This document shows positions 1,846-51,444 of a stretch of 64,000 nt of DNA, in pieces (position 1 is the first letter of the stretch; the number at the start of each line of letters is the position of its first letter). A program made the position numbers and the translations under genes. The DNA comes from Burkholderiaceae bacterium (GTDB lineage: Bacteria; Patescibacteriota; Saccharimonadia; Saccharimonadales; AQU-01), in the NCBI GenBank assembly GCA_043788365.1, contig JAYVTZ010000001.1, positions 7,800-71,799 on the forward strand. Reading direction: 5' to 3'. The notes beneath the pieces were generated by a model. That model was given only the letters and a program-made list of their open reading frames with translations. It searched no databases and was not told where the DNA came from.

Positions 1846-2706
1846 ATGAATAAGAAGTTATCTATCCAAGAACTAGAACTAAAGGCTAATGATATTCGCA
1901 AAGATATTATTAGAATGCTCGAGCACGCCGGTAGCGGTCATAGCGCTGGCCCACTTGATTTGGCCGACATTTTCACCGCTCTTTATTTTGATATTTTAAA
2001 ACACGACCCTAAAAATCCGGGTTGGGACGAGCGCGATTTATTGATTCTCAGCAACGGGCATTGCGCACCGGTACTTTATGCCACGATGGCTAATGCTGGC
2101 TATTTTGAGCGCGAAGAGTTAATGACATTGCGCCAATTTGGCTCAAGACTGCAAGGTCATCCAGAGCGCGAGCGTTTGCCAGGGCTCGAAAATACCAGCG
2201 GTCCACTCGGTTGTGGCCTCAGTCAGGCGGCAGGCATGGCACTGGCCATGCGAATGAATAGCCAGCAGTTGCACCGTTATATTTATGTCGTCATGGGTGA
2301 CGGTGAGCAAAACGAGGGTAATGTTTGGGAGGCGGCCATGCTGGCCTCAAAATATAAGCTCAGCAACATTATTGCCATTACAGATAGAAACAACATTCAG
2401 ATTGATGGCATGACCGAAGACGTTATGCCACTGGAAGACTTAAAAGCCAAATGGGAAGCTTTTGGCTGGTACGTTATTGAAATTGACGGCAACAATATCG
2501 AAGCCTTCATCGATGCGACAGCGATGGGCAGAGCGATAGTCGATAAACCAGTAATGATTATCGCACACACAATTGCCGGTAAGGGTATTGATTTTATGGA
2601 GTATGACTTCCACTGGCACGGCAAACCGCCGAATGCCGACGAGGCAAAACTGGCCTTACATGAACTTCGTACACTGGGTGGCAAGATTAAATCGGAGCAT
2701 GAGTAA
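1846..2706 (+). CDS. transketolase, N-terminal (TPP-binding) subunit
   Basis: 286 aa. Motifs GHSAGPLD and GDGEQNEGNVWEA. Split-gene form. Confidence 0.92.
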   Translation: MNKKLSIQELELKANDIRKDIIRMLEHAGSGHSAGPLDLADIFTALYFDILKHDPKNPGWDERDLLILSNGHCAPVLYATMANAGYFEREELMTLRQFGSRLQGHPERERLPGLENTSGPLGCGLSQAAGMALAMRMNSQQLHRYIYVVMGDGEQNEGNVWEAAMLASKYKLSNIIAITDRNNIQIDGMTEDVMPLEDLKAKWEAFGWYVIEIDGNNIEAFIDATAMGRAIVDKPVMIIAHTIAGKGIDFMEYDFHWHGKPPNADEAKLALHELRTLGGKIKSEHE

Positions 2707-3695
2707 TGACAGATTTATATCTTGTACAAAATTTCCGTGACAAAGACGCTCTCAAAGAGCCGACCCGTAAAGGTTTCGGTAAAGGGCTACTTGAGGCTGG
2801 TAAAAGAAACGAAAATGTAGTGGCTGCCTGCGCCGACCTGACTGATTCGACCCAGATTAGCTTATTCGCTAAAGAGTTTCCTGAACGCTTTGTCGAGATC
2901 GGCATCGCAGAACAAAACCTGGTAACCGTTGGTTCGGGCTTAGCGGCACAAGGTAAGATCCCCTTTGTCAGTAGTTACGCAGCCTTTAGCCCTGGTCGCA
3001 ACTGGGAACAGATTCGTACCACTATCTGTCTTAATAATCAGCCAGTTAAGATTGTTGGCTCTCATGCCGGTCTCTATACCGGTAAAGATGGCGCAACTCA
3101 TCAAATGCTTGAGGATATTGCTCTAATGCGAGTGCTACCAAACATGGTGGTGATTGCCCCTGGTGATTCAGTAGAGGCAGAAAAAGCCACTCTTGCCATG
3201 GCTGAAGATAAAAGACCGAACTATATCCGCTTGGCTCGTGAAGCCACACCGGTGCTGACGACCGATAAAACACCATTTAAGATTGGCAAAGCCTATGTCT
3301 ACGCTGAGGGCACAGACATTACGATTATCAGTACTGGCACAATGACTTACCGAGCGATGGTTGCGGCCGAGATTTTATCGAAAGCAGGTATTGCGGCCGA
3401 AGTCGTTCATGTACCGACTATTAAGCCTTTAGATAATGTAACGATTTTAGCCAGTGCCCGTAAAACAGGAATCATAATTACAATCGAAGAAGCCCAAATC
3501 AACGGTGGACTCGGTGGAGCGGTTGCCGAACTATTGTCAGAAGAGTTACCGACGGCTATGCGCCGCATGGGTATGCGTGACCATTTTGGTGAGTCGGGTA
3601 ACCCAGATGAACTATTTGAACACTTTGGACTGACGTCGAACCAAATCGTATTAAATGCTCATGAACTAGTGAGTGCTAAGAAAGCTAGGAGTTAA
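2706..3695 (+). CDS. transketolase, C-terminal (pyrimidine-binding) subunit
   Basis: 329 aa. EIGIAEQN motif. Start overlaps the N-subunit stop (TAATG). Confidence 0.92.
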   Translation: MTDLYLVQNFRDKDALKEPTRKGFGKGLLEAGKRNENVVAACADLTDSTQISLFAKEFPERFVEIGIAEQNLVTVGSGLAAQGKIPFVSSYAAFSPGRNWEQIRTTICLNNQPVKIVGSHAGLYTGKDGATHQMLEDIALMRVLPNMVVIAPGDSVEAEKATLAMAEDKRPNYIRLAREATPVLTTDKTPFKIGKAYVYAEGTDITIISTGTMTYRAMVAAEILSKAGIAAEVVHVPTIKPLDNVTILASARKTGIIITIEEAQINGGLGGAVAELLSEELPTAMRRMGMRDHFGESGNPDELFEHFGLTSNQIVLNAHELVSAKKARS

Positions 3696-11066: not shown

Positions 11067-12499
11067 GTCAGTGGAAGTCGATCAAACAACTAGCTGATGA
11101 TGTCAACGCAAAGCGAACATCCGCATCCGATTTAGTTGCTACGGCACTTAAAACAATCGAAGATAGAAAAGACTTTAATGCCATTATCGCCACTACTGCC
11201 GAACGGGCTAGACAGCGTGCCAAAGATATTGATAACAAAGTTGCGAACGGCGAAAATGCTGGCAGGTTAGCTGGTGTGCCATTTATTGCCAAAGATAACT
11301 TTTTAGTTTTTGGGGCCGAAACGACGGCTGCTAGTAACATCTTAAAAGGTTTCAACGCACCTTATCAAGCGACAGCAATCGAGCGACTGGAAGCTGAAGG
11401 CGCTATTTGTGTTGCCAAGGCTAACCTCGATGCTTTTGCCCACGGTTCTAGTACTGAAAATAGTGACTTTTTCACAACACTTAACCCGCTCGATAAAACT
11501 CGTGTGCCAGGTGGTTCATCAGGCGGTTCAACGGCTGCCGTTATACTCGACATGGTACCGTTTGCGCTCGGTACTGACACTGGTGGTTCGATTCGCTTGC
11601 CGGCATCATTTTGCGGTGCCGTTGGCTACAAGCCGACTTATGGTCTCGTCTCGAGGTCTGGAGTGGTTGCGATGGCCAGTAGTTTGGATGTTGTCGGACC
11701 GCTAACTCGTACTGTCGAAGACGCTGCAATTGTGCTTGACGTCATGTCTGGCAAAGACCCACTCGACAGCACCGCCGTCGACAAAGATGAAAAAGGCTAC
11801 GAACTCATAACTCTCGGCCAGTCGGCGAAGCTCTCAGCTGTCCGGATTGGTGTTATCAAAGAATACATGGCAGAAGGCCTAGACGAAGAAGTTAAAAAGA
11901 GTATCGAAGCCTCAATTGCTAAATTAAAGGCCGCTGGTGCCGAAATAATCGAAGTTAGTCTACCGTCATTGCCACTTGCTCTAGCCGTTTATTATATCGT
12001 TTGTCCGGCTGAAGTCAGTAGTAATCTTAGCCGTTATGATGGCCAGCGCTATGGCTTTAGCGATAAAGAGGCAAAAAATCTGGACGAGAGCTATAAGCAG
12101 TCCCGCTCAATCGGTTTTGGTAACGAAGCTAAACGTCGGATTATGATCGGTACTTACGTGCTTAGCAGTGGCTACTACGACGCCTATTATAAGCGTGCTC
12201 AAATTGTTCGCACTAAGCTGATAAATGAATTCGCCGACGCCTTCAAACAGGTCGACTTCTTGATTGGTCCGACAGCACCGTCTACTGCCTTTAAAATTGG
12301 TGAAAATATAGCCGATCCGCTGAAGATGTATCTGACTGATATTATGACCGTTGCCGTAAACTTAGTCGGTGTGCCGGCGATAAGTTTGCCTAGTTTAATA
12401 GACAAAGGCATGCCCATCGGTTTACAGTTAATCGCACCTGCGTCACACGATCGTCAATTATTAGAAATTGCCTTAACTTCGGAAGGATTGTTAAAATGA
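11063..12499 (+). CDS. gatA: Asp/Glu-tRNA amidotransferase subunit A (amidase signature)
   Basis: 478 aa. GGSSGGS amidase signature. 4-nt overlap with gatC. Confidence 0.96.
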   Translation: MSQWKSIKQLADDVNAKRTSASDLVATALKTIEDRKDFNAIIATTAERARQRAKDIDNKVANGENAGRLAGVPFIAKDNFLVFGAETTAASNILKGFNAPYQATAIERLEAEGAICVAKANLDAFAHGSSTENSDFFTTLNPLDKTRVPGGSSGGSTAAVILDMVPFALGTDTGGSIRLPASFCGAVGYKPTYGLVSRSGVVAMASSLDVVGPLTRTVEDAAIVLDVMSGKDPLDSTAVDKDEKGYELITLGQSAKLSAVRIGVIKEYMAEGLDEEVKKSIEASIAKLKAAGAEIIEVSLPSLPLALAVYYIVCPAEVSSNLSRYDGQRYGFSDKEAKNLDESYKQSRSIGFGNEAKRRIMIGTYVLSSGYYDAYYKRAQIVRTKLINEFADAFKQVDFLIGPTAPSTAFKIGENIADPLKMYLTDIMTVAVNLVGVPAISLPSLIDKGMPIGLQLIAPASHDRQLLEIALTSEGLLK

Positions 12500-44221: not shown

Positions 44222-44509
44222 ATGAGCAAGGACTACGCAACCAAACATGATGTTGAAGAAATCGTCGGCCGAGTAGTTGGTGTTGTCGTTGGAGGCATTG
44301 TCGGCGATGCCTTGCAGTTAATTTCTGAACGTTTCGACAAAGTCGACGAACGACTCGATAGACACGAAGTGTTACTTAACGAACATTCAACAATACTAGA
44401 AGATCACACTGATAAACTTTATCGAATCGAAAAGAAACTAGATACTACCATTGAAATAGTCGATGGCCATGGCATCCAACTCAAAAAACTAAAACACCTT
44501 ACAGCCTAG
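44222..44509 (+). CDS. small hypothetical coiled-coil protein
   Basis: 95 aa. Gly/Val-rich segment followed by heptad-like helices. Confidence 0.55.
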   Translation: MSKDYATKHDVEEIVGRVVGVVVGGIVGDALQLISERFDKVDERLDRHEVLLNEHSTILEDHTDKLYRIEKKLDTTIEIVDGHGIQLKKLKHLTA

Positions 44510-44545: not shown

Positions 44546-44630
44546 GCGGATGTGGTGGAATTGGTAGACACGCTAGCCTTAGGAGCTAGTGTCGCAAGAC
44601 GTGAAGGTTCAAGTCCTTTCATCCGCACCA
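44546..44630 (+). tRNA. tRNA-Leu (anticodon TAG), type II with long variable arm, CCA encoded
   Basis: Hand-folded. Acceptor GCGGATG/CATCCGC. Anticodon stem CTAGC/GCTAG with loop CTTAGGA. Variable arm GTCGCAAGAC. T-arm GAAGG-TTCAAGT-CCTTT. 85 nt. Confidence 0.93.
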
Positions 44631-44637
44631 TATTTAA

Positions 44638-44660
44638 AGCCCCTCGAAAGAGGGGTTTTA
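44638..44660 (+). terminator. rho-independent terminator after tRNA-Leu
   Basis: CCCCTC-GAAA-GAGGGG followed by TTTT. Confidence 0.8.
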
Positions 44661-44749
44661 AATATGGTACAAATTAAGTCTTGAACCTTCAGACCCGCTT
44701 TAGCGGGTGAAGGTTAGCCCGCGCGAAGCCGGACGCTGTCCTTTCATCC
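44650..44749 (+). repeat. direct repeat DR1 (tRNA T-arm-derived hairpin element ending in a copy of the tRNA 3' end)
   Basis: 44654-44724 is identical (71/71) to 44997-45067. Hairpin arms at 44684-44698 and 44703-44715. The 3' block CTGTCCTTTCATCC matches the tRNA 3' end. Confidence 0.9.
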
Positions 44750-44772
44750 CCATCATCTGTTAAGCTATAGTA

Positions 44773-44994
44773 ATGAGTTACGAGTTTTTGAGTAATTTAA
44801 GCGACGATGATGCTGCGAAACTTGTAGGTAAAGTTATTAATAGACTACCACATCATCATGGCCGAATCGGATCGGCAATCATGGAAGTCTTAGAATTTTC
44901 ACCACCAGAAGGCACAGATATTAATGCATTTAATGCAAGTGTCATGGGTGATGCGCTGAGAATAATAGGAGACAGCTCAGTCCCTGAGGAATAA
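44773..44994 (+). CDS. small hypothetical protein bracketed by DR1 and DR2
   Basis: 73-aa ORF. DR2 begins 1 nt after its TAA. Confidence 0.45.
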   Translation: MSYEFLSNLSDDDAAKLVGKVINRLPHHHGRIGSAIMEVLEFSPPEGTDINAFNASVMGDALRIIGDSSVPEE

Positions 44995-45096
44995 GAGGTT
45001 TTAAATATGGTACAAATTAAGTCTTGAACCTTCAGACCCGCTTTAGCGGGTGAAGGTTAGCCCGCGCCGTATGCACGACACTGTCCTTTCATCCGC
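44995..45096 (+). repeat. direct repeat DR2
   Basis: Same 71-nt core as DR1. Variable 13-nt segment, then CTGTCCTTTCATCCGC, of which 14 nt (GTCCTTTCATCCGC) are identical to the tRNA-Leu 3' end. Confidence 0.9.
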
Positions 45097-45184
45097 TCAA
45101 ATCATTAGATTCAATTCAACGCATCTTCTTTAGTCTGACAGGTTTATGAATAATATAATCATCACTGGTAGTCGAAACAATGAA

Positions 45185-45193
45185 TGATATAAT
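45185..45193 (+). promoter_or_regulatory. extended -10 box TGATATAAT, 6 nt upstream of ATG 45200
   Basis: Sequence tgatataat tttggt ATG. Confidence 0.45.
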
Positions 45194-45199
45194 TTTGGT

Positions 45200-45451
45200 A
45201 TGAATAGTATTGATGACAGTACTTATATTGGGGTAATTTTAGAAGAAGTCCGCGACCAGAACAAGCTAGTCCTTGAAGCAGTTGGTGATATGAAGAAGAA
45301 CATTGATAAAATACCTAAAATTGAGGCTGATGTCGTAGAGCTTAAGCAAGATATGAAAGTGGTTAAAGATGTGGTCAAAGATATTAGTGCGCATATAAAT
45401 AACCACGAACTCAGAATTACTAAACTTGAACTTGGCAGACGATCTATCTAA
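45200..45451 (+). CDS. small hypothetical coiled-coil protein
   Basis: 83 aa. Heptad-rich (VVELKQDMKVVKDVVKDI). Confidence 0.55.
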   Translation: MNSIDDSTYIGVILEEVRDQNKLVLEAVGDMKKNIDKIPKIEADVVELKQDMKVVKDVVKDISAHINNHELRITKLELGRRSI

Positions 45452-45585
45452 CTATTGAAATCAAATGTCAGAATCCGCAAAAATTTAATACGGGCAATTC
45501 TATTCAGAGCATACAAACAGGAACTGAGCTTACTAATAAGTCGTTCAGATAAGCTCTAGGGGTGTTGAAAAGAGCCAAAATCCTC

Positions 45586-45591
45586 TATAAT
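45586..45591 (+). promoter_or_regulatory. candidate -10 box TATAAT upstream of the giant surface-protein gene
   Basis: TTGAAA lies 15 nt upstream, which is short spacing. AAGG sits 7 nt before GTG 45633. Confidence 0.35.
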
Positions 45592-45632
45592 AATGCTTAA
45601 GATTAAGGGGTCTAAAAAGCTAAGGTTTAGAC

Positions 45633-48600
45633 GTGCAGAGGCCAGAGGGAAAAGGTAGAATCATTACCGACTTTACTCCTGTTAAAAAAGGAGCGGGGCA
45701 GGCAGTACCAAAAATCTTGGCCAAAAGTCCTGCAAAAAAGTTGCCGTTGCGAAATAGGCTAAAGCTCCGAGCCAGAAAACAAAAGCTTAAGCTGGCTAGA
45801 CTTGCCAAGCCGTCAAAGATACCTTTGATCAGGTTCACTCCTCGCACTCTCTCAGCCGGCATAATCATCCTAACCCTACTCGGCTTAATCATAGGCAACT
45901 CCCTCTACCAATCCTCCAAATACAAAATAAACCGCACTAAAGTAGCCTTCCTATCCCATAGCTCCATAGACACAACCTTCATCAAACAAGATAGTAAAAG
46001 CTTTAGCTACGACCGTAGCGCCGAACAATCTGCAATAAGTACTAACGACAAAGGCCAAAAACAACTAACTGTAGCTAGTCCAACTGACGCTACCGGCATA
46101 GACTCATACAAGGCCACCCTACCCAAGAATCCTAAAGACGGCATAACCTTTAGTGACTCTAAAGGTACTAATAGCTTTAACCTAAAACCACTAGACAAAG
46201 CTGTTAATTCATCTCTGCTTGGTGGTCGCCTAGATAGTGGCAATATAGTCTATCCAAGTAGTAACAACTCTAACGAGAAACACATCTATTCCTTCAAAAA
46301 GAACGGCATTAAGGAAGATATTCTCCTAACAGCCAAACCAAGCACTAAAGAACTAAACTACGCCTATACTCTAACCCTAAACTCTGACCAAGAAGCCAGA
46401 GCCAACCCAGACGGATCAATTGGCATCTACATTGCTAACCCAAACAATACAAGCTCAAACAGCACCAACCCAAACAATACAGCTAGTCAACCTAAAGACT
46501 ACCTTGTCTACGTCCTACCTAAACCCTTCATCATAGACAGCAGAGGAGTAAAGAACTATGAGGATGTCTTCTACAAGCTAGAAGCAAGCAAACAAACAAC
46601 AACAGGCAATAGCAACCAGACGGGAAACAACGGAACGAATGGCCAAGCTGGCAGCACCTACACCCTAACCCTAGAAGCTCTAAACATGCTAAACAAGAAC
46701 TATCCTCTAAGTATTGACCCTACTATTACAGTCACAACCACAGCTGACTTTAGACAAGGCTTAGACGATGGCATGCTAGACTACACCACCACGGCTGATC
46801 AAGTGGCGAGGGCGAATGTGTCATTGGGGACAATGGGAACAGCCACAACTCAAACTGCGGCATTTACAACCAAAAGATCGTCACCAACTGCATTAGCTTA
46901 TAATGGCTACGCTTATATATTCGGTGGATCATTTCAAAGTTCGCTCATACAATCAAGCGTCTATACTGATATACAGTATTGTCCAATCAACACCAACGGA
47001 AGCCTTGGGACATGCACGACAAACTCCACAGGATTAGCTGCCGCACCTGATCCTTGGGAGTCATTTATTTATAACGGCAGTATCTATAGCATTCTCGGTT
47101 TTGGCTTTGGCATGGTGCAACGATGTATTATCAATTCTAATGCTTCCGTTAGTCCGTGCACATTTCAGACTGGTATAAGTAACCTATCAAAACAGCCTCT
47201 TTTTCTTCACGATAATTTTTTGTTTACTATTTCAGCGGGGGATGTAAACAGATGCCCGTTCAATAGCGATGGATCAATAGGAAATTGTACAACCCAAAGC
47301 GCAGTTTATAATTCGAACTGGGGCGTGGCATCAGCAGAAATATATAATACTTGGCTTTACGTCACTAGCATTGATGTTAGCGGATTTATGAGTATGATGA
47401 TTTGTCGGATTAATCCGGACGAATCGGTAAGTAACTGTACTCATTCGGTTACATCTTTGGTTGGACGATCTGGATACGGATTAGCAGCATATAGAGGATA
47501 TTTATATATAATAGGCGGTCACGATTTTTTTGCTACGTTATACGATGTGGATGAAGCGCCAATTAATGCCGACGGGTCTATCGGCAGCTTAACGACTCTA
47601 AACATACTGAACACAAAACTTTCACTGATGGGGGCATTTATTTACGATGGATATCTGCATGTTATGGGTGGTAATTTTAAAAACGGTGGAACTTTTTTTA
47701 ATACTAATGATGCGGAGTATGTACCAATTAATACTGGCACGCCAACCTTTGGTACGGTCAGCTCTGCGACGCAGCAAACAAGCGCCTTTACGACAGCGCG
47801 CTATAACCAGACTTCTGTGGTCTACGACGGCTATCTCTATATCATTGGCGGCTGTCACGATGCAGCGTCGCCGCCGTGTGATGTGTTACTGAATGACATT
47901 CAGTACTGCCCGATAAATAGCGATGGCTCGATAGGCGCCTGTACTCAGCAGACCAACGCCTTTACTACGGCTAGGGCATACCACGCAACGGCGATACTCA
48001 ACGGCTATTTATATATTGTCGGCGGGCAAACCGGCGCTTTAACTGTCACGAACGATGTTCAATATTGCCAGATCAATAACAATCACTCTGTCGGTACATG
48101 CACTCAACAGACTAACGCCTTTACGACCGCCAGAATGAGCCATGCTTCTTTTGCCTATAACGGCTATTTATATATTGTCGGCGGCCAAAGCTTTGCGCCA
48201 ACCTCTGGCTGTACGCCGGTCGATTATTGTGACGATATCCAATATTGTCCAATAAATTCTAACGGCTCAGTTGGAGCCTGTACTCAGCAAACCTCTGCCT
48301 TTACAACCGCCCGTGATTTCCTTTCTTCGCTGACGTACAACGGCTATCTCTACATTGTTGGCGGTTTTAGTAACGGTGGAGCGTTAAATGATATTCAATA
48401 CTGCCCAATCAACTCTAATGGTTCAGTTGGGGCTTGTACCCAGCAGGCAGCGGCCTTCACTACTCCAAGATACAACCTGCGGTCGGTAGCCTATAATGGC
48501 TATTTGTATATAATTGGCGGCCAAGATAACGCCAGTATCCCGTTAAGTGATTTGCATCATTGCCCCATAAATAGTAACGGCTCAATAGGTACATGTACTC

Positions 48601-49472
48601 AGGTTTTGTCAGCTTTTACGACAGCACGCTCTTCTCATACTTCAGTAGTCTACGGAGGTTACCTATATATAATTGGCGGCTATGATAACACTAGTTCTTA
48701 CAACGACATCCAATACATCCCAACCCTCACCCCAACCCAAGTCTCGCACTATGAAAGACTTATTAACCTAGGCAACGGTGGCACAGTCACTTCCTTTGTG
48801 ATTAATGGTACTGCTAAATGTGGCTACACTGTTAGCTACAAAACAGCTGACAATACAGGAGTCTTTGGTTCGTCTACTACAGTGCTTGATGTCTTCCCAG
48901 GAGTATCTCAAACAGTATCACTAACCGGTGCTACTGCCATAGCTTTCACGGTTGTACTAGATGACTCAACCTGCGGTGGTCAGTCTATAGTCACCGACCT
49001 TAGTGTTAGCTATACTCCTAGACCTAGCGCCCCAACTCTAACGGCGCCACTCAATAATGCTACTGCTGCTAGCTTAACTCCAGAACTTCGTCTTGGAGCT
49101 ATCGCCAACACCACGAACTATCTTCGTTATAAGATAGAAGTCTGTAGTACCAGCAACTGTTCCTCTATAGTTCGCACTATCGACCAAACATCAAGCCAGA
49201 CTGGCTGGCAATCTCAGTCAGAACAAAGTGGTACTGCCTACACGGGTGGGATATCGTCAATTGCTCAGTACGCTATTCACAAGTACCAAACCCCAGCACT
49301 ATCCGCCAATACACAATATTGGTGGCGAGGCTACGCCATAGACCCTAGCGGCACAAATACCTTTAGCCCAGCTTCTGCTATCTCTACCTTCACGACCAAA
49401 CAAACTACCGCCAATGTCATAAATATTGGCGGCGGCACAACTATCTATAGCGGTACGACAATAGGTAATTGA
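45633..49472 (+). CDS. 1279-aa membrane-anchored surface protein: basic N-tail, TM helix, unknown domain, two tandem six-bladed Kelch-like beta-propellers, C-terminal beta-sandwich and FN3-like domains
   Basis: GTG start. TM helix at aa 72-90. Twelve blades (aa 403-1031); the last six follow AFTTAR-x6-YNGYLYI[IV]GG-x8-18-DIQYCPINSNGS[IV]GxC. C-terminal YWWRGYAIDPSG FN3-like motif. Confidence 0.85.
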   Translation: MQRPEGKGRIITDFTPVKKGAGQAVPKILAKSPAKKLPLRNRLKLRARKQKLKLARLAKPSKIPLIRFTPRTLSAGIIILTLLGLIIGNSLYQSSKYKINRTKVAFLSHSSIDTTFIKQDSKSFSYDRSAEQSAISTNDKGQKQLTVASPTDATGIDSYKATLPKNPKDGITFSDSKGTNSFNLKPLDKAVNSSLLGGRLDSGNIVYPSSNNSNEKHIYSFKKNGIKEDILLTAKPSTKELNYAYTLTLNSDQEARANPDGSIGIYIANPNNTSSNSTNPNNTASQPKDYLVYVLPKPFIIDSRGVKNYEDVFYKLEASKQTTTGNSNQTGNNGTNGQAGSTYTLTLEALNMLNKNYPLSIDPTITVTTTADFRQGLDDGMLDYTTTADQVARANVSLGTMGTATTQTAAFTTKRSSPTALAYNGYAYIFGGSFQSSLIQSSVYTDIQYCPINTNGSLGTCTTNSTGLAAAPDPWESFIYNGSIYSILGFGFGMVQRCIINSNASVSPCTFQTGISNLSKQPLFLHDNFLFTISAGDVNRCPFNSDGSIGNCTTQSAVYNSNWGVASAEIYNTWLYVTSIDVSGFMSMMICRINPDESVSNCTHSVTSLVGRSGYGLAAYRGYLYIIGGHDFFATLYDVDEAPINADGSIGSLTTLNILNTKLSLMGAFIYDGYLHVMGGNFKNGGTFFNTNDAEYVPINTGTPTFGTVSSATQQTSAFTTARYNQTSVVYDGYLYIIGGCHDAASPPCDVLLNDIQYCPINSDGSIGACTQQTNAFTTARAYHATAILNGYLYIVGGQTGALTVTNDVQYCQINNNHSVGTCTQQTNAFTTARMSHASFAYNGYLYIVGGQSFAPTSGCTPVDYCDDIQYCPINSNGSVGACTQQTSAFTTARDFLSSLTYNGYLYIVGGFSNGGALNDIQYCPINSNGSVGACTQQAAAFTTPRYNLRSVAYNGYLYIIGGQDNASIPLSDLHHCPINSNGSIGTCTQVLSAFTTARSSHTSVVYGGYLYIIGGYDNTSSYNDIQYIPTLTPTQVSHYERLINLGNGGTVTSFVINGTAKCGYTVSYKTADNTGVFGSSTTVLDVFPGVSQTVSLTGATAIAFTVVLDDSTCGGQSIVTDLSVSYTPRPSAPTLTAPLNNATAASLTPELRLGAIANTTNYLRYKIEVCSTSNCSSIVRTIDQTSSQTGWQSQSEQSGTAYTGGISSIAQYAIHKYQTPALSANTQYWWRGYAIDPSGTNTFSPASAISTFTTKQTTANVINIGGGTTIYSGTTIGN

Positions 49473-49474
49473 TT

Positions 49475-49492
49475 AAATTTTAGTCTTGAACC
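49475..49492 (+). repeat. partial third copy (DR3) of the DR 5' module, 2 nt after the giant gene stop
   Basis: AAATTTTAGTCTTGAACC versus AAATTAAGTCTTGAACC in DR1 (44671-44687) and DR2 (45014-45030). Confidence 0.6.
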
Positions 49493-49581
49493 CTTATGCC
49501 TGCCAAGCAGTGAAGCCTATCTGGCTCACGACTGTATTTGCTTGCTGGTGGGCCATGCTGTCATTCCAATCGCAAAAGTCT

Positions 49582-50055
49582 TTATTCCTCGATCTTCCTT
49601 GTAGTAATTGGTCCAGAAAGTTGCGAAGTATCTGGTTCTGGTTGGCGCGTACGGTCCTGGGATTTTATTTGAGCTCTAGACTGGTTTACTCGTATCACAC
49701 CACTACTCCCAGACCGATTTTGAAGCTGTGCCAAAAAGTTACCACTAAGGTTAGTTTTATTTCTGTCGTGTCCAAAAGGATAGAACTGCATATCGTGCTC
49801 GACCGCCTCATCGACCTGTATCTCGACTTCATCGCGCCTGACCAGTTGGTCTGCGTCTAGAATAGGTGGCTCAGCATAAAGCAGTTCATCGTTTTCTCGC
49901 AAGGCTTTAATAACGGCATAGACCACTATGCCCCTAAGTGCAAATGGAGCACTCATCTGGTCGCCATCAATAATATATTCAATCGTAGCTTCTGTGGCTT
50001 CATTGACTTCTTGGTCGGTGTGTTCATAGACAGGTTTCTGTATCTTCACAGACAT
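49582..50055 (-). CDS. acidic hypothetical protein
   Basis: 157-aa ORF, more protein-like than the overlapping plus-strand ORF 49486..49860. Confidence 0.55.
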   Translation of the reverse strand: MSVKIQKPVYEHTDQEVNEATEATIEYIIDGDQMSAPFALRGIVVYAVIKALRENDELLYAEPPILDADQLVRRDEVEIQVDEAVEHDMQFYPFGHDRNKTNLSGNFLAQLQNRSGSSGVIRVNQSRAQIKSQDRTRQPEPDTSQLSGPITTRKIEE

Positions 50056-50145: not shown

Positions 50146-51444
50146 ATGGCCCTATCAACTCAACCCTACAAAGGCACCAGAGATTTCTACCCTGAGGACA
50201 TGCGCCTGCAGAAGTATATCTTTGGTGTTATGCGCACAGTTGCTGAAAAATTTGGCTATGAAGAATACGGTGCATCAATATTAGAGCCGATTGAGCTATA
50301 TAAAGCTAAAAGTGGCGCTGAAATTGTTAGTGAGCAGACTTATTTATTTACAGACAGGGGTGGCCGAGAGGTTGCTATCAGGCCGGAAATGACCCCTACA
50401 GTTAGCCGCATGGTTGCCGGTAAGCGCCAAGAACTCGGTTATCCGCTCAGGTGGTTTAGTATTCCAAATCTATTGCGTTATGAACGTCCACAGCGCGGCC
50501 GACTACGCGAGCACTGGCAGCTGAATGTCGATGTATTTGGTGTCGCTGGGATTGAAGCTGATTATGAGATTATTAGCGTTTCTGACGCGATTATGCAGGC
50601 TTATGGTGCCGGTCGTGAGATGTACGTCATTAAGCTAAATAGCCGTAAACTGATGGATAAGATTTTCGCAGATTACCTCGGACTTAATGCTGAGCAAGCC
50701 GTAAAAGTTGCCAAAATTATTGACCATATGCACAAAGTTGCACCAGAAGTTTTTGATAAAGAAGTTAACGAGGTCTTAAGTGATGAACAGCGTCAAAGTG
50801 GTGTTAGCGGTAGGCTGGGCGGAATATTAGAAGTTAATAACCTTGATCAACTACCTGAAGATCTGAAAGCGCATGAGTCGGTCGCCGAACTTCGTAAGCT
50901 AATGCAAATGATGGGCGATTCTGGCATCACTAATGGCGTATTTGATATATCTGTCATGCGTGGCTTTGACTACTACACCGATATTGTTTTTGAAGTCATG
51001 GATACTGACCCCGAGAACAATCGTTCAATGTTTGGTGGTGGCCGTTACGACGGACTCGTTGGATTATTTGGTGTCGAGCCAGTGCCAACCGTTGGCTTTG
51101 GTATGGGTGACGTCACAATCGCCAATTTCATTGAGACCCATAGCCTTAAGCCTAACCTAAAAACCGAGACTGATATTTATGTTATTTTAGTCGGTGATGT
51201 ATATAGTCAGGCCCAAAATGTGGTGACTGAACTGCGTAACCGAGGGCTGAACGTCGCCGTCGATATGTCTGGCCGTAAACCAGGCGACCAAATCAAAAAT
51301 GCCACTAAAAAGAATATTGAGCATGTACTATTTATTGGCGAAAAAGAATTGTCAGAAAATCGCTTCAACCTCAAGAATATTGTCAGCGGCCAAGAGGATA
51401 ATCTCGATATTGATGGTATAGTTGGGCAAATTAGTAAAAAATGA
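50146..51444 (+). CDS. hisS: histidyl-tRNA synthetase
   Basis: 432 aa. Class II motifs (RYERPQRGRLREHWQ, GGGRYDGL). TATAAT lies 8 nt upstream of the ATG. Confidence 0.95.
   Translation: MALSTQPYKGTRDFYPEDMRLQKYIFGVMRTVAEKFGYEEYGASILEPIELYKAKSGAEIVSEQTYLFTDRGGREVAIRPEMTPTVSRMVAGKRQELGYPLRWFSIPNLLRYERPQRGRLREHWQLNVDVFGVAGIEADYEIISVSDAIMQAYGAGREMYVIKLNSRKLMDKIFADYLGLNAEQAVKVAKIIDHMHKVAPEVFDKEVNEVLSDEQRQSGVSGRLGGILEVNNLDQLPEDLKAHESVAELRKLMQMMGDSGITNGVFDISVMRGFDYYTDIVFEVMDTDPENNRSMFGGGRYDGLVGLFGVEPVPTVGFGMGDVTIANFIETHSLKPNLKTETDIYVILVGDVYSQAQNVVTELRNRGLNVAVDMSGRKPGDQIKNATKKNIEHVLFIGEKELSENRFNLKNIVSGQEDNLDIDGIVGQISKK

Follow-up and report, generated by a model that had tools for sequence, protein, structure and literature searches.

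What are the two direct repeats of about 100 bp that follow a leucine tRNA gene in a member of Candidatus Saccharibacteria, and how did they come to bracket a small open reading frame (ORF)? How Saccharibacteria, with their tiny and reduced genomes, acquire genes is poorly understood. The window analyzed here is the whole stretch of 64,000 nucleotides; it belongs to Candidatus Saccharibacteria and carries the tRNA-Leu(TAG) gene, the direct repeats DR1 and DR2 and a degenerate third copy, DR3. A preliminary description had proposed that the repeats are remnants of attachment (att) sites left by serial integration into the tRNA 3' end, and had pointed to a resemblance to integron attC sites. On balance, we lean towards reading the repeats as tRNA-tail-derived junction modules of a serial-acquisition array at a tRNA-Leu hotspot. 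The features on which this reading rests are the following.

44546-44630, plus strand: tRNA-Leu(TAG), called by ARAGORN and by Rfam RF00005 (60.5 bits)
44627-44668: palindromic terminator-like hairpin ACCATATTTAAAGCCCCTC GAAA GAGGGGTTTTAAATATGGT, from the ACCA of the tRNA to an inverted TGGT
44650-44755, plus strand: DR1 module (nhmmer with the DR profile, E = 3e-28)
44756-44765, plus strand: decayed copy of the tRNA trailer, TCTGTTAAGC against TATTTAAAGC (repeat family with 82% identity over 28 nt)
44993-45096, plus strand: DR2 module (nhmmer, E = 2.9e-27)
about 49473-49575, plus strand: DR3, a degenerate third module directly behind the stop codon of a Kelch-repeat gene

The source of the repeated sequence is the 3' third of tRNA-Leu(TAG), comprising T-arm, acceptor strand and CCA. 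ARAGORN called no other tRNA in the window. As had been described, DR1 and DR2 share a 71-nt core (44654-44724 and 44997-45067) that is identical at 71 of 71 positions; no match was obtained in 100 shuffles. The core is followed by unrelated segments of 11 nt in DR1 (GAAGCCGGACG) and 13 nt in DR2 (CGTATGCACGACA, 45068-45080). Both repeats then close with CTGTCCTTTCATCC, which repeats the 3' strand of the T-stem and the acceptor strand of tRNA-Leu, again in agreement with the first description. The sequence GTCCTTTCATCC was found at exactly three sites in the 64 kb (44613 in the tRNA, 44738 and 45083) where 0.21 were expected by chance, and each of these sites coincides with a block boundary. 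An inverted copy of the T-arm had also been reported within the core. This copy, CTTGAACCTTCA at 44680 and 45023, proved to be the exact reverse complement of the T-arm at 44602-44613. It pairs with the downstream TGAAGGTT to form hairpin 2, AACCTTCA-GA-CCCGC-TTTA-GCGGG-TGAAGGTT, which is present at 44684-44715 and 45027-45058 as claimed.

From 44600 to 44694 the sequence forms a single long, imperfect palindrome with the terminator loop at its centre; the tRNA 3' third and its trailer make up one arm, and an inverted copy of both makes up the other. The terminator-like hairpin is an inverted repeat with 28-nt arms that are 82% complementary; it was labelled a terminator by inspection, a simple terminator scan did not flag it, and it drew a spurious miRNA-like match in the Rfam scan. 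The ACCA...TGGT palindrome recurs in relatives with different sequences. DR1 is composed of the right terminator arm, the inverted tRNA 3'-end copy TGGTACAAATTAAGTCTTGAACCTTCA, hairpin 2, a GC hairpin (hairpin 3, 44716-44737) and a pseudo tRNA 3' end, GTCCTTTCATCCCCATCA (44738-44755). The tail copy behind DR1 runs on through the trailer, with GTCCTTTCATCCCCATCATCTGTTAAGC being 82% identical to the tRNA 3' end plus trailer, and the following cargo starts at the expected start of the terminator stem. DR2 lacks the left terminator arm and ends in the pseudo tRNA 3' end CTGTCCTTTCATCCGC (45081-45096), and the tail and trailer copy behind it is 64% identical to the original. DR3 was the third-best nhmmer match in the window (E = 0.0057 for 49478-49527) and contains, in order, the blocks AGTCTTGAACC, GTGAAG and GCTGTCATTCCAATCGC. 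The tail copies thus decay with distance from the tRNA, from 100% to 82% and 64% and then to DR3. Since DR3 lies directly behind the Kelch gene, the array reaches to within 600 nt of hisS. No DR copies other than DR1, DR2 and DR3 occur in the 64 kb, and all three lie at the tRNA-Leu locus.

The same locus was analyzed in relatives by an RsmD scan, which returned 65 loci of about 12 kb each, nearly all from Candidatus Saccharibacteria. The order RsmD, tRNA-Leu(TAG), hisS was conserved, and synteny of RsmD and tRNA-Leu(TAG) was seen in about 55 Saccharibacteria loci. In the scanned loci, the distance between tRNA and hisS ranged from 40 nt to more than 4.8 kb; the distance between RsmD and tRNA varied too. 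The closest genome (L001) has the tRNA and a single DR, with hisS 85 nt past the DR. A second relative (L002) also has a single DR, followed by 4.7 kb of other genes before hisS. The window contains 5.4 kb between DR1 and hisS, a lineage-specific interval occupied by ORF73, DR2, ORF83, the Kelch gene, DR3 and ORF157.

44773-44994, plus strand: ORF73, the only cargo between DR1 and DR2
45097-49472, plus strand: second cargo block, beginning with the 64% copy of tRNA tail and trailer
45200-45451, plus strand: ORF83, within the second cargo block
45633-49472, plus strand: Kelch-repeat protein of 1279 aa, within the second cargo block
49582-50055, minus strand: ORF157, lineage-specific, the last cargo before hisS, no Pfam match
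50146-51444, plus strand: hisS, the conserved right border of the variable interval (tblastx and tblastn synteny)

Through tRNA and DR, the window, L001 and L002 are 87-89% identical at the nucleotide level, with compensatory changes, whereas RsmD identity between these species is 78%. The three-way homology ends exactly behind GTCCTTTCATCC, and the end of the DR is therefore a synteny breakpoint. The second cargo block, with ORF83 and the Kelch gene, is missing from L001 and L002 as judged by tblastx synteny. The interval between tRNA and hisS is a hotspot, with conserved flanks and a content that differs among related genomes. It also has the layout of a tRNA-linked island, in which the tRNA 3' end is the starting point of blocks and directly repeated tRNA tails delimit them. 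Tail copies mark block boundaries likewise in L031, L044 and L091.

A pattern scan of metagenomes revealed 16 DR copies on nine contigs, all in a tRNA-Leu/hisS context. A profile search added one further copy, and none was located away from this locus. Within the 65 genome loci, DR matches occurred only directly behind tRNA-Leu, and viral contigs contained no DR copies. A dispersed family of repetitive extragenic palindromes (REP) or miniature inverted-repeat transposable elements (MITE) was ruled out by this confinement to one locus, in the window as in the 65 loci. The cargo-less unit is a 95-nt imperfect palindrome behind gene ends, which resembles REP and MITE palindromes; unlike these it is found at a single locus, and one of its arms is the functional 3' third of a tRNA. 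Thus the DR is not a widespread terminator-like repeat that lacks a link to tRNA genes and sits at an invariant locus, the finding that had been named as speaking against att remnants: it is bound to this locus, and the interval is variable.

Close relatives carry one DR; the metagenome contigs carry arrays of two to four diverged copies between unrelated cargo. The array with four DRs (L091) reads tRNA, terminator, DRa, terminator, DRb, a 253-aa gene, DRc, two minus-strand genes, terminator, DRd and hisS. Its adjacent modules have unrelated terminators and different hairpin sequences, and hence are not local duplicates. In L086 the order is tRNA, DR, a 510-aa gene, DR, a phosphatase and, further on, hisS. 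The same DR-flanked 510-aa block is found in L084, where its left neighbours are a different module and a recombinase-bearing element. L087 has a small element between two DRs. Block sizes range from 125 bp to 4.5 kb; some blocks hold several genes, and some cargo genes lie on the opposite strand. The orientation of the DR is always that of the tRNA.

The decay gradient, the heterologous modules, the fixed orientation and the homology break at the module end argue for serial recombination at tRNA tails. We propose that DR1, DR2 and, in decayed form, DR3 each represent a "tRNA-Leu tail module" of about 100-125 bp. In this module a palindromic terminator would be joined to an inverted tRNA 3' end, followed by two conserved hairpins and by a pseudo-copy of the same 3' end in direct orientation. 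The module would be native to the position behind tRNA-Leu(TAG) in one Saccharibacteria clade, where the interval up to hisS would act as a recombination hotspot. DNA would enter by recombining either with the tRNA-tail sequence or with the pseudo-copy of it. Every such event would push the previous tail, trailer and module distally, where they would decay. The predicted outcome is tRNA, module, cargo, module, cargo, module, hisS, with ORF73 and then ORF83 plus Kelch as the cargo of the window. The blocks of the window carry no recombinase and may have been moved in trans or may be relics. DR2 would be a mosaic, in which gene conversion from DR1 replaced the first 71 nt of a module of older date. 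DR2 has a diverged tail and trailer and a different segment, yet its core equals that of DR1, which fits such a conversion; the 71/71 identity is better explained in this way than by two fresh integrations.

Relatives carry elements with a large serine recombinase (LSR) at the same tRNA. Recombinase fragments in L084 matched Pfam PF00239 Resolvase (3e-20) and PF07508 Recombinase (2e-7). When these fragments were used in tblastn, homologues were detected directly 3' of tRNA-Leu, on the opposite strand, in L057, L054, L040 and L004. Remnants are present in L004, L040 and L084, and three genes are intact.

L057:2927-4504, minus strand: intact LSR of 525 aa
L054:6656-8257, minus strand: intact LSR of 533 aa
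L094:2085-3665, plus strand: intact LSR, the full version of the L084 gene

At least 593 proteins belong to this family, many of them labelled Saccharimonadales; viral contigs gave a single distant match only. The LSR frame crosses the tRNA tail in antisense and ends in the T-loop, where TCA is complementary to its stop codon. Different acceptor/T-stem sequences, translated in antisense, give the C-termini GADERT, GARERT, GARDWT and GRGDRT, so that the last six LSR residues co-vary with the acceptor stem of the tRNA. The elements of L057, L054 and L094 are bounded on either side by GCACCAG. In the seven right-end junctions listed, (G/C)(T/C)TCAA begins 24 nt before CACCA, the junction of L085 being counted via a weaker gtttgg match. 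In the tRNA arm GTTCAA begins 19 nt before CACCA, which is a 5-bp shift relative to the element arm. In the model for large serine integrases, the distal motif is shifted by 5 bp between attP and attB (PMC3783163). The observed shift fits this rule and, together with the GCACCAG ends, identifies the elements of the relatives as genuine serine-integrase elements. Judged from these junctions, they target G|CACCA, with the T-loop as distal motif. The outward shift of the distal motif and the GCACCAG core resemble the LSR sites of phages (A118/LI, Bxb1, phiC31). This likeness holds for the LSR elements of relatives and not for the DRs.

Four LSR-type right ends adjoin the series CACCA, terminator, DR, and in L087 a DR pseudo-tail is immediately followed by an element whose right end is of the LSR type, and this element by the next module. 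The link between LSR and DR junctions is circumstantial. We also considered the DR as the P arm of an LSR attP and the DR unit as a miniaturised LSR element; both were rejected, as the real ends of LSR elements look different.

A second, classical class of elements that use this tRNA is formed by tyrosine-integrase elements. Viral contigs (L067, L070, L073, L074 and L081) contain a partial tRNA-Leu(TAG) from the anticodon stem to ACCA, where the exact match to the window tRNA over the 25-nt 3' end was the search pattern. A few hundred bases off, tblastn gave matches to the C-terminus of a tyrosine integrase. In L072 a full tRNA-Leu is followed by a tyrosine integrase.

The folding of the DR was analyzed across copies. 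In the DR copies 90.9% of the cells were paired, compared with at most 49% when the structure was slid, and RNAalifold was applied as well. The covariation score of the hairpins was reached by none of 500 shuffles. The apex of hairpin 2 occurs as CCCGC/GCGGG, CTTCC/GGAAG, CCTGC/GCAGG and CCTCC/GGAGG, and the GC hairpin as GCCCG/CGGAC, GTCCG/CGGAC and GCCGG/CCGAC. Because the search pattern prescribed the outer 8 bp of hairpin 2, the invariance of these pairs is uninformative for the metagenome copies. The compensatory changes in the DR hairpins indicate selection on the folded form.

Several of these results weigh against junction modules built by serial acquisition. Compensatory changes imply a constraint on RNA or single-stranded DNA, which is unexpected for plain att scars. 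Neither a recombinase nor an LSR-type attR was found in the 64-kb window. The DR pseudo-sites share only the proximal 13 nt of the LSR target with the tRNA arm, and they have no GTTCAA at -19 or -24. In the window and at DRc of L091 the cargo replaces the terminator stem and does not start at G|CACCA, a misfit with LSR crossover. Exact-sequence look-ups with ORF73, RsmD and P0001, the database entry matching ORF73, returned no conspecific strain on record in which presence or absence of ORF73 could be compared. Finally, simple local duplication also accounts for the 71/71 identity of DR1 and DR2. The original proposal of serial att remnants therefore stands in part. The homology break, the hypervariable interval, the arrays and the LSR elements of relatives support it; the crossover of these LSRs at G|CACCA instead of the T-loop and the absence of the distal motif from the DR pseudo-sites do not. 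The hotspot, the arrays, their restriction to this locus, the conserved fold and the serine-recombinase elements at this tRNA in relatives are shown by the data; a site-specific rather than homologous origin of the window copies is inferred, as is the enzyme that would have been responsible. Homologous exchange via the conserved module part of about 45 nt, following DNA uptake, could lead to similar arrays.

A purely local rearrangement would dispense with a mobile element in the window. Unequal homologous recombination or replication template switching at the palindrome would have produced the repeats, and ORF73 would be a spurious frame in inserted or expanded spacer DNA. The identical core is what such an event would leave, and the homology of DR2 starts in the terminator loop, a typical palindrome breakpoint. 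The tail and trailer behind DR1 are a diverged copy of the trailer of this very genome, ORF73 is an ORFan, and no recombinase was found in the window. We nevertheless regard this origin as doubtful, because the unrelated 11- and 13-nt segments inside otherwise identical repeats are incompatible with plain duplication, and because DR3 and the 4.4 kb of lineage-specific genes require foreign DNA. In addition, the arrays of relatives combine modules of clearly different origin with unrelated cargo.

Other Saccharibacteria lineages have longer elements of 105-190 nt at the same place. Their order is terminator palindrome, inverted T-arm fragment, 5' strand of the T-stem, a structured insert of about 90 nt and CAAGTCC...ACCA. 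The final tail copy matches the acceptor sequence of the local tRNA, and a further terminator is often next to it. L031 mirrors the layout of the window, with a tail copy, an ORF and a tail copy. The tail or tRNA fragments of L027 and L060 differ from the local tRNA, which points to a horizontal, foreign origin of these fragments. The longer relatives, termed X/Y, share a core in which a P1 hairpin is followed by GCAAG, a variable hairpin and a P3 hairpin. The same core was also found upstream of the intact tRNA, inside pseudo-5' fragments of tRNA-Leu. These tRNA-embedded elements of 90-130 nt, all upstream of an intact tRNA-Leu, are located as follows.

L016:6641-6785: tRNA-embedded element, in the D-loop
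L015:6607-6745: tRNA-embedded element, in the D-loop
L052:9311-9475: tRNA-embedded element, in the anticodon loop
L020:1400-1500: tRNA-embedded element, at the acceptor/D junction
L013:6550-6700: tRNA-embedded element

They consist of GTGAGAA, an NGTG-loop hairpin, GCAAG, a variable hairpin and a GGGG-hairpin, occupy four tRNA positions and are homologous to the insert of the downstream longer elements. P1 and P3 covary. In P3, 11 of 11 copies have a plus-strand G.U wobble that would correspond to an A.C mismatch in the opposite strand, which suggests that X/Y may be an RNA made from the tRNA strand. The X/Y elements matched no Rfam family, and the hairpin motif had just two unrelated matches in viral contigs.

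These data bear on the view that the module is chiefly a functional structured RNA of the plus strand, with recombination being secondary and copies persisting because they are useful. Its possible roles would include those of a processed small RNA, of an insulator or 3'-end stabiliser following tRNA and cargo genes, and of a mimic or decoy of the tRNA tail. The compensated hairpins, the covarying P1 and P3 with their plus-strand G.U pairs and a DR identity higher than expected from that of RsmD are all consistent with such an RNA, as are the constant orientation and the position of every DR behind a gene end. However, searches of Rfam 15 with gathering and permissive thresholds (E<=5-10), covering the window region, L016, L031 and 11 loci, matched only the tRNA. 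All other matches were chance-level hairpins, and T-box, tmRNA and small ribozymes were among the families covered. A terminator separates the tRNA from DR1, and there is no space for a promoter. Moreover, G.U and C.A exceptions are mixed among the DR copies, DR3 and the tails decay, so that not every copy is maintained, and part of the apparent conservation of hairpin 2 in metagenome copies was set by the search pattern. An RNA function would also leave the homology break exactly at the module end unexplained. We therefore consider it an unlikely main role, although it is the most credible of the alternatives.

Specific RNA candidates were tried and rejected. The DR is not a tRNA gene or an intron-containing tRNA, since it has no 5' acceptor strand and ARAGORN calls one tRNA. 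On the minus strand, neither an acceptable T-arm nor an acceptor was seen by inspection, and ARAGORN called no tRNA or tRNA-like gene. An acceptor-like extension of hairpin 3 into a minihelix showed no covariation, as its 5' side tracks hairpin 2 and its 3' side is fixed. A leader peptide within the DR (a Shine-Dalgarno sequence and ATG GTA CAA ATT AAG TCT TGA) is not conserved in L001 and L002. T-box control of hisS was dismissed because no model matched and the module mimics tRNA-Leu, not tRNA-His.

It is also conceivable, if rather improbable, that the module and its longer relatives, instead of being scars, actively build the array as a structured RNA or folded single-strand element derived from tRNA-Leu. 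Such an element may be a self-propagating target decoy that shuffles gene blocks in bacteria of the Candidate Phyla Radiation, similar to an integron but with a tRNA tail and serine recombinases. Alternatively, it may be an intron-like mobile RNA that inserts into the D-, anticodon- and T-loops of tRNA-Leu copies.

The resemblance to integrons was restricted to architecture. An integron-like cassette array would use the DR as an attC-type site, an IntI-type tyrosine recombinase, and tRNA plus DR1 as attI. The locus indeed shares with attC arrays a site of about 100 nt that is structured, imperfectly palindromic and placed 3' of the cargo, as well as the fixed orientation and the conserved pairing with variable sequence. 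In contrast to attC sites, the hairpin ends are CTTGAAC and GTTAGCC and match neither R'' (RYYYAAC) nor R' (GTTRRRY), the latter as had been remarked earlier. No IntI-like gene is located next to the array, where the neighbours of the tRNA are RsmD and ORF95, and no tyrosine recombinase was detected either when the window ORFs of matching size were scanned or beside the tRNA in the 65 related loci. The recombinase that does occur beside the tRNA in related loci is a serine recombinase. The platform is a tRNA, and the cargo includes multi-gene blocks and opposite-strand genes. Taken together, membership among the integrons is very improbable, and this part of the preliminary description fails.

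As junctions of a serial-acquisition array, the modules compare best with two known systems. In tRNA-linked islands formed by tandem accretion, including cis-mobilizable elements (CIME), the site is likewise a tRNA 3' end, directly repeated tRNA tails border the blocks, the age of the copies increases with distance from the tRNA and cargo varies among relatives. Blocks without a recombinase also occur there, with recombinase-bearing elements in related genomes. Here, however, the repeat is a module of 100-125 bp with an inverted tail copy and compensated hairpins instead of a tRNA fragment of 15-50 bp, the blocks are very small, and the module is present even without cargo (L001). The arrays of the staphylococcal cassette chromosome (SCC) at the 3' end of rlmH, moved by Ccr, share an LSR family dedicated to the 3' end of one conserved gene, serial stacking, and pseudo-elements that lack a recombinase and are delimited by repeated integration-site sequences. 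They differ in that the target here is a tRNA, with the LSR gene antisense through its tail and the stop in the T-loop, in the long and structured module, and in the circumstantial LSR-DR link. This type of genome-island site is familiar, but the conserved structured module is unusual.

The locus appears to be a dedicated entry point for genes between tRNA-Leu and hisS, with surface, Kelch, pilin-like and toxin-type cargo. A conserved LSR family tied to the tRNA tail provides a concrete, testable site and enzyme for gene flow, and both have potential use in genetic engineering of a phylum that is hard to manipulate. No curated RNA family corresponds to the junction module or to its longer relatives, which may represent a new RNA or folded-DNA element.

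The cargo and neighbouring genes of the window were inspected. The small ORF described between the repeats is present as ORF73, although its status as a real gene is doubtful: its last codons overlap a degenerate left terminator arm, Pfam gave no match, and the one match among 5.8 billion proteins (P0001) was the same sequence with a different start. Pfam detected no integrase among the seven ORFs of 286-344 aa and three other ORFs of the window. Between RsmD and the tRNA, the window alone carries ORF95 (44222-44509), a coiled-coil-like protein with no Pfam match. In L001 and L002 the tRNA follows about 15 nt behind RsmD, with no ORF95 between. Thus the upstream side of the tRNA is variable too. 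ORF95 and ORF83 were considered as flanking paralogues and rejected, as they have no mutual similarity.

Further observations were made in the related loci. A stretch of about 70 nt, ATTCAATTTAGATCGCAAATAAT...GTTAATGTGCGATATCACATT, opens different cargo blocks directly behind a DR (L002:6303-6370, L087:71-140 and L091, reverse orientation, 1371-1440; a variant at L084:3141-3210 and L086:4587-4650). It includes an operator-like palindrome and may be a shared element end or a promoter. In L091 (reverse orientation, 2689-3663) the cargo contains a second, 5'-truncated hisS-like gene on the opposite strand, beside the genuine hisS. L044:6736-8240 is a 1.5-kb block behind tRNA-Leu with a diverged tRNA-tail copy, GTACTTCCATCCCCACCA, at its end; judged by eye, its cargo comprises a BrnT/BrnA-like toxin-antitoxin pair together with an NYN-like protein. 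In L060 (6554-6830) the resident tRNA-Leu, with the acceptor GCGGATG, is split by an insertion of about 206 bp, with the first 18 nt of this tRNA on one side and its 3' portion, starting in the anticodon loop, on the other. Within the insertion lies another tRNA-Leu(TAG), complete and different, with the acceptor GCGCGAG, so that one tRNA gene is effectively swapped for another. A GC hairpin, TCCGCCAGTNGGCGGA, was observed within the tRNA-tail copies of two unrelated loci (L027:6779-6839 and L060:6995-7015); in L060 it splits CAAGTCCT|TTCATCC. Just behind hisS of L039, a c-di-GMP-II riboswitch was found at 11612-11693 with 56.4 bits, above the Rfam gathering threshold.

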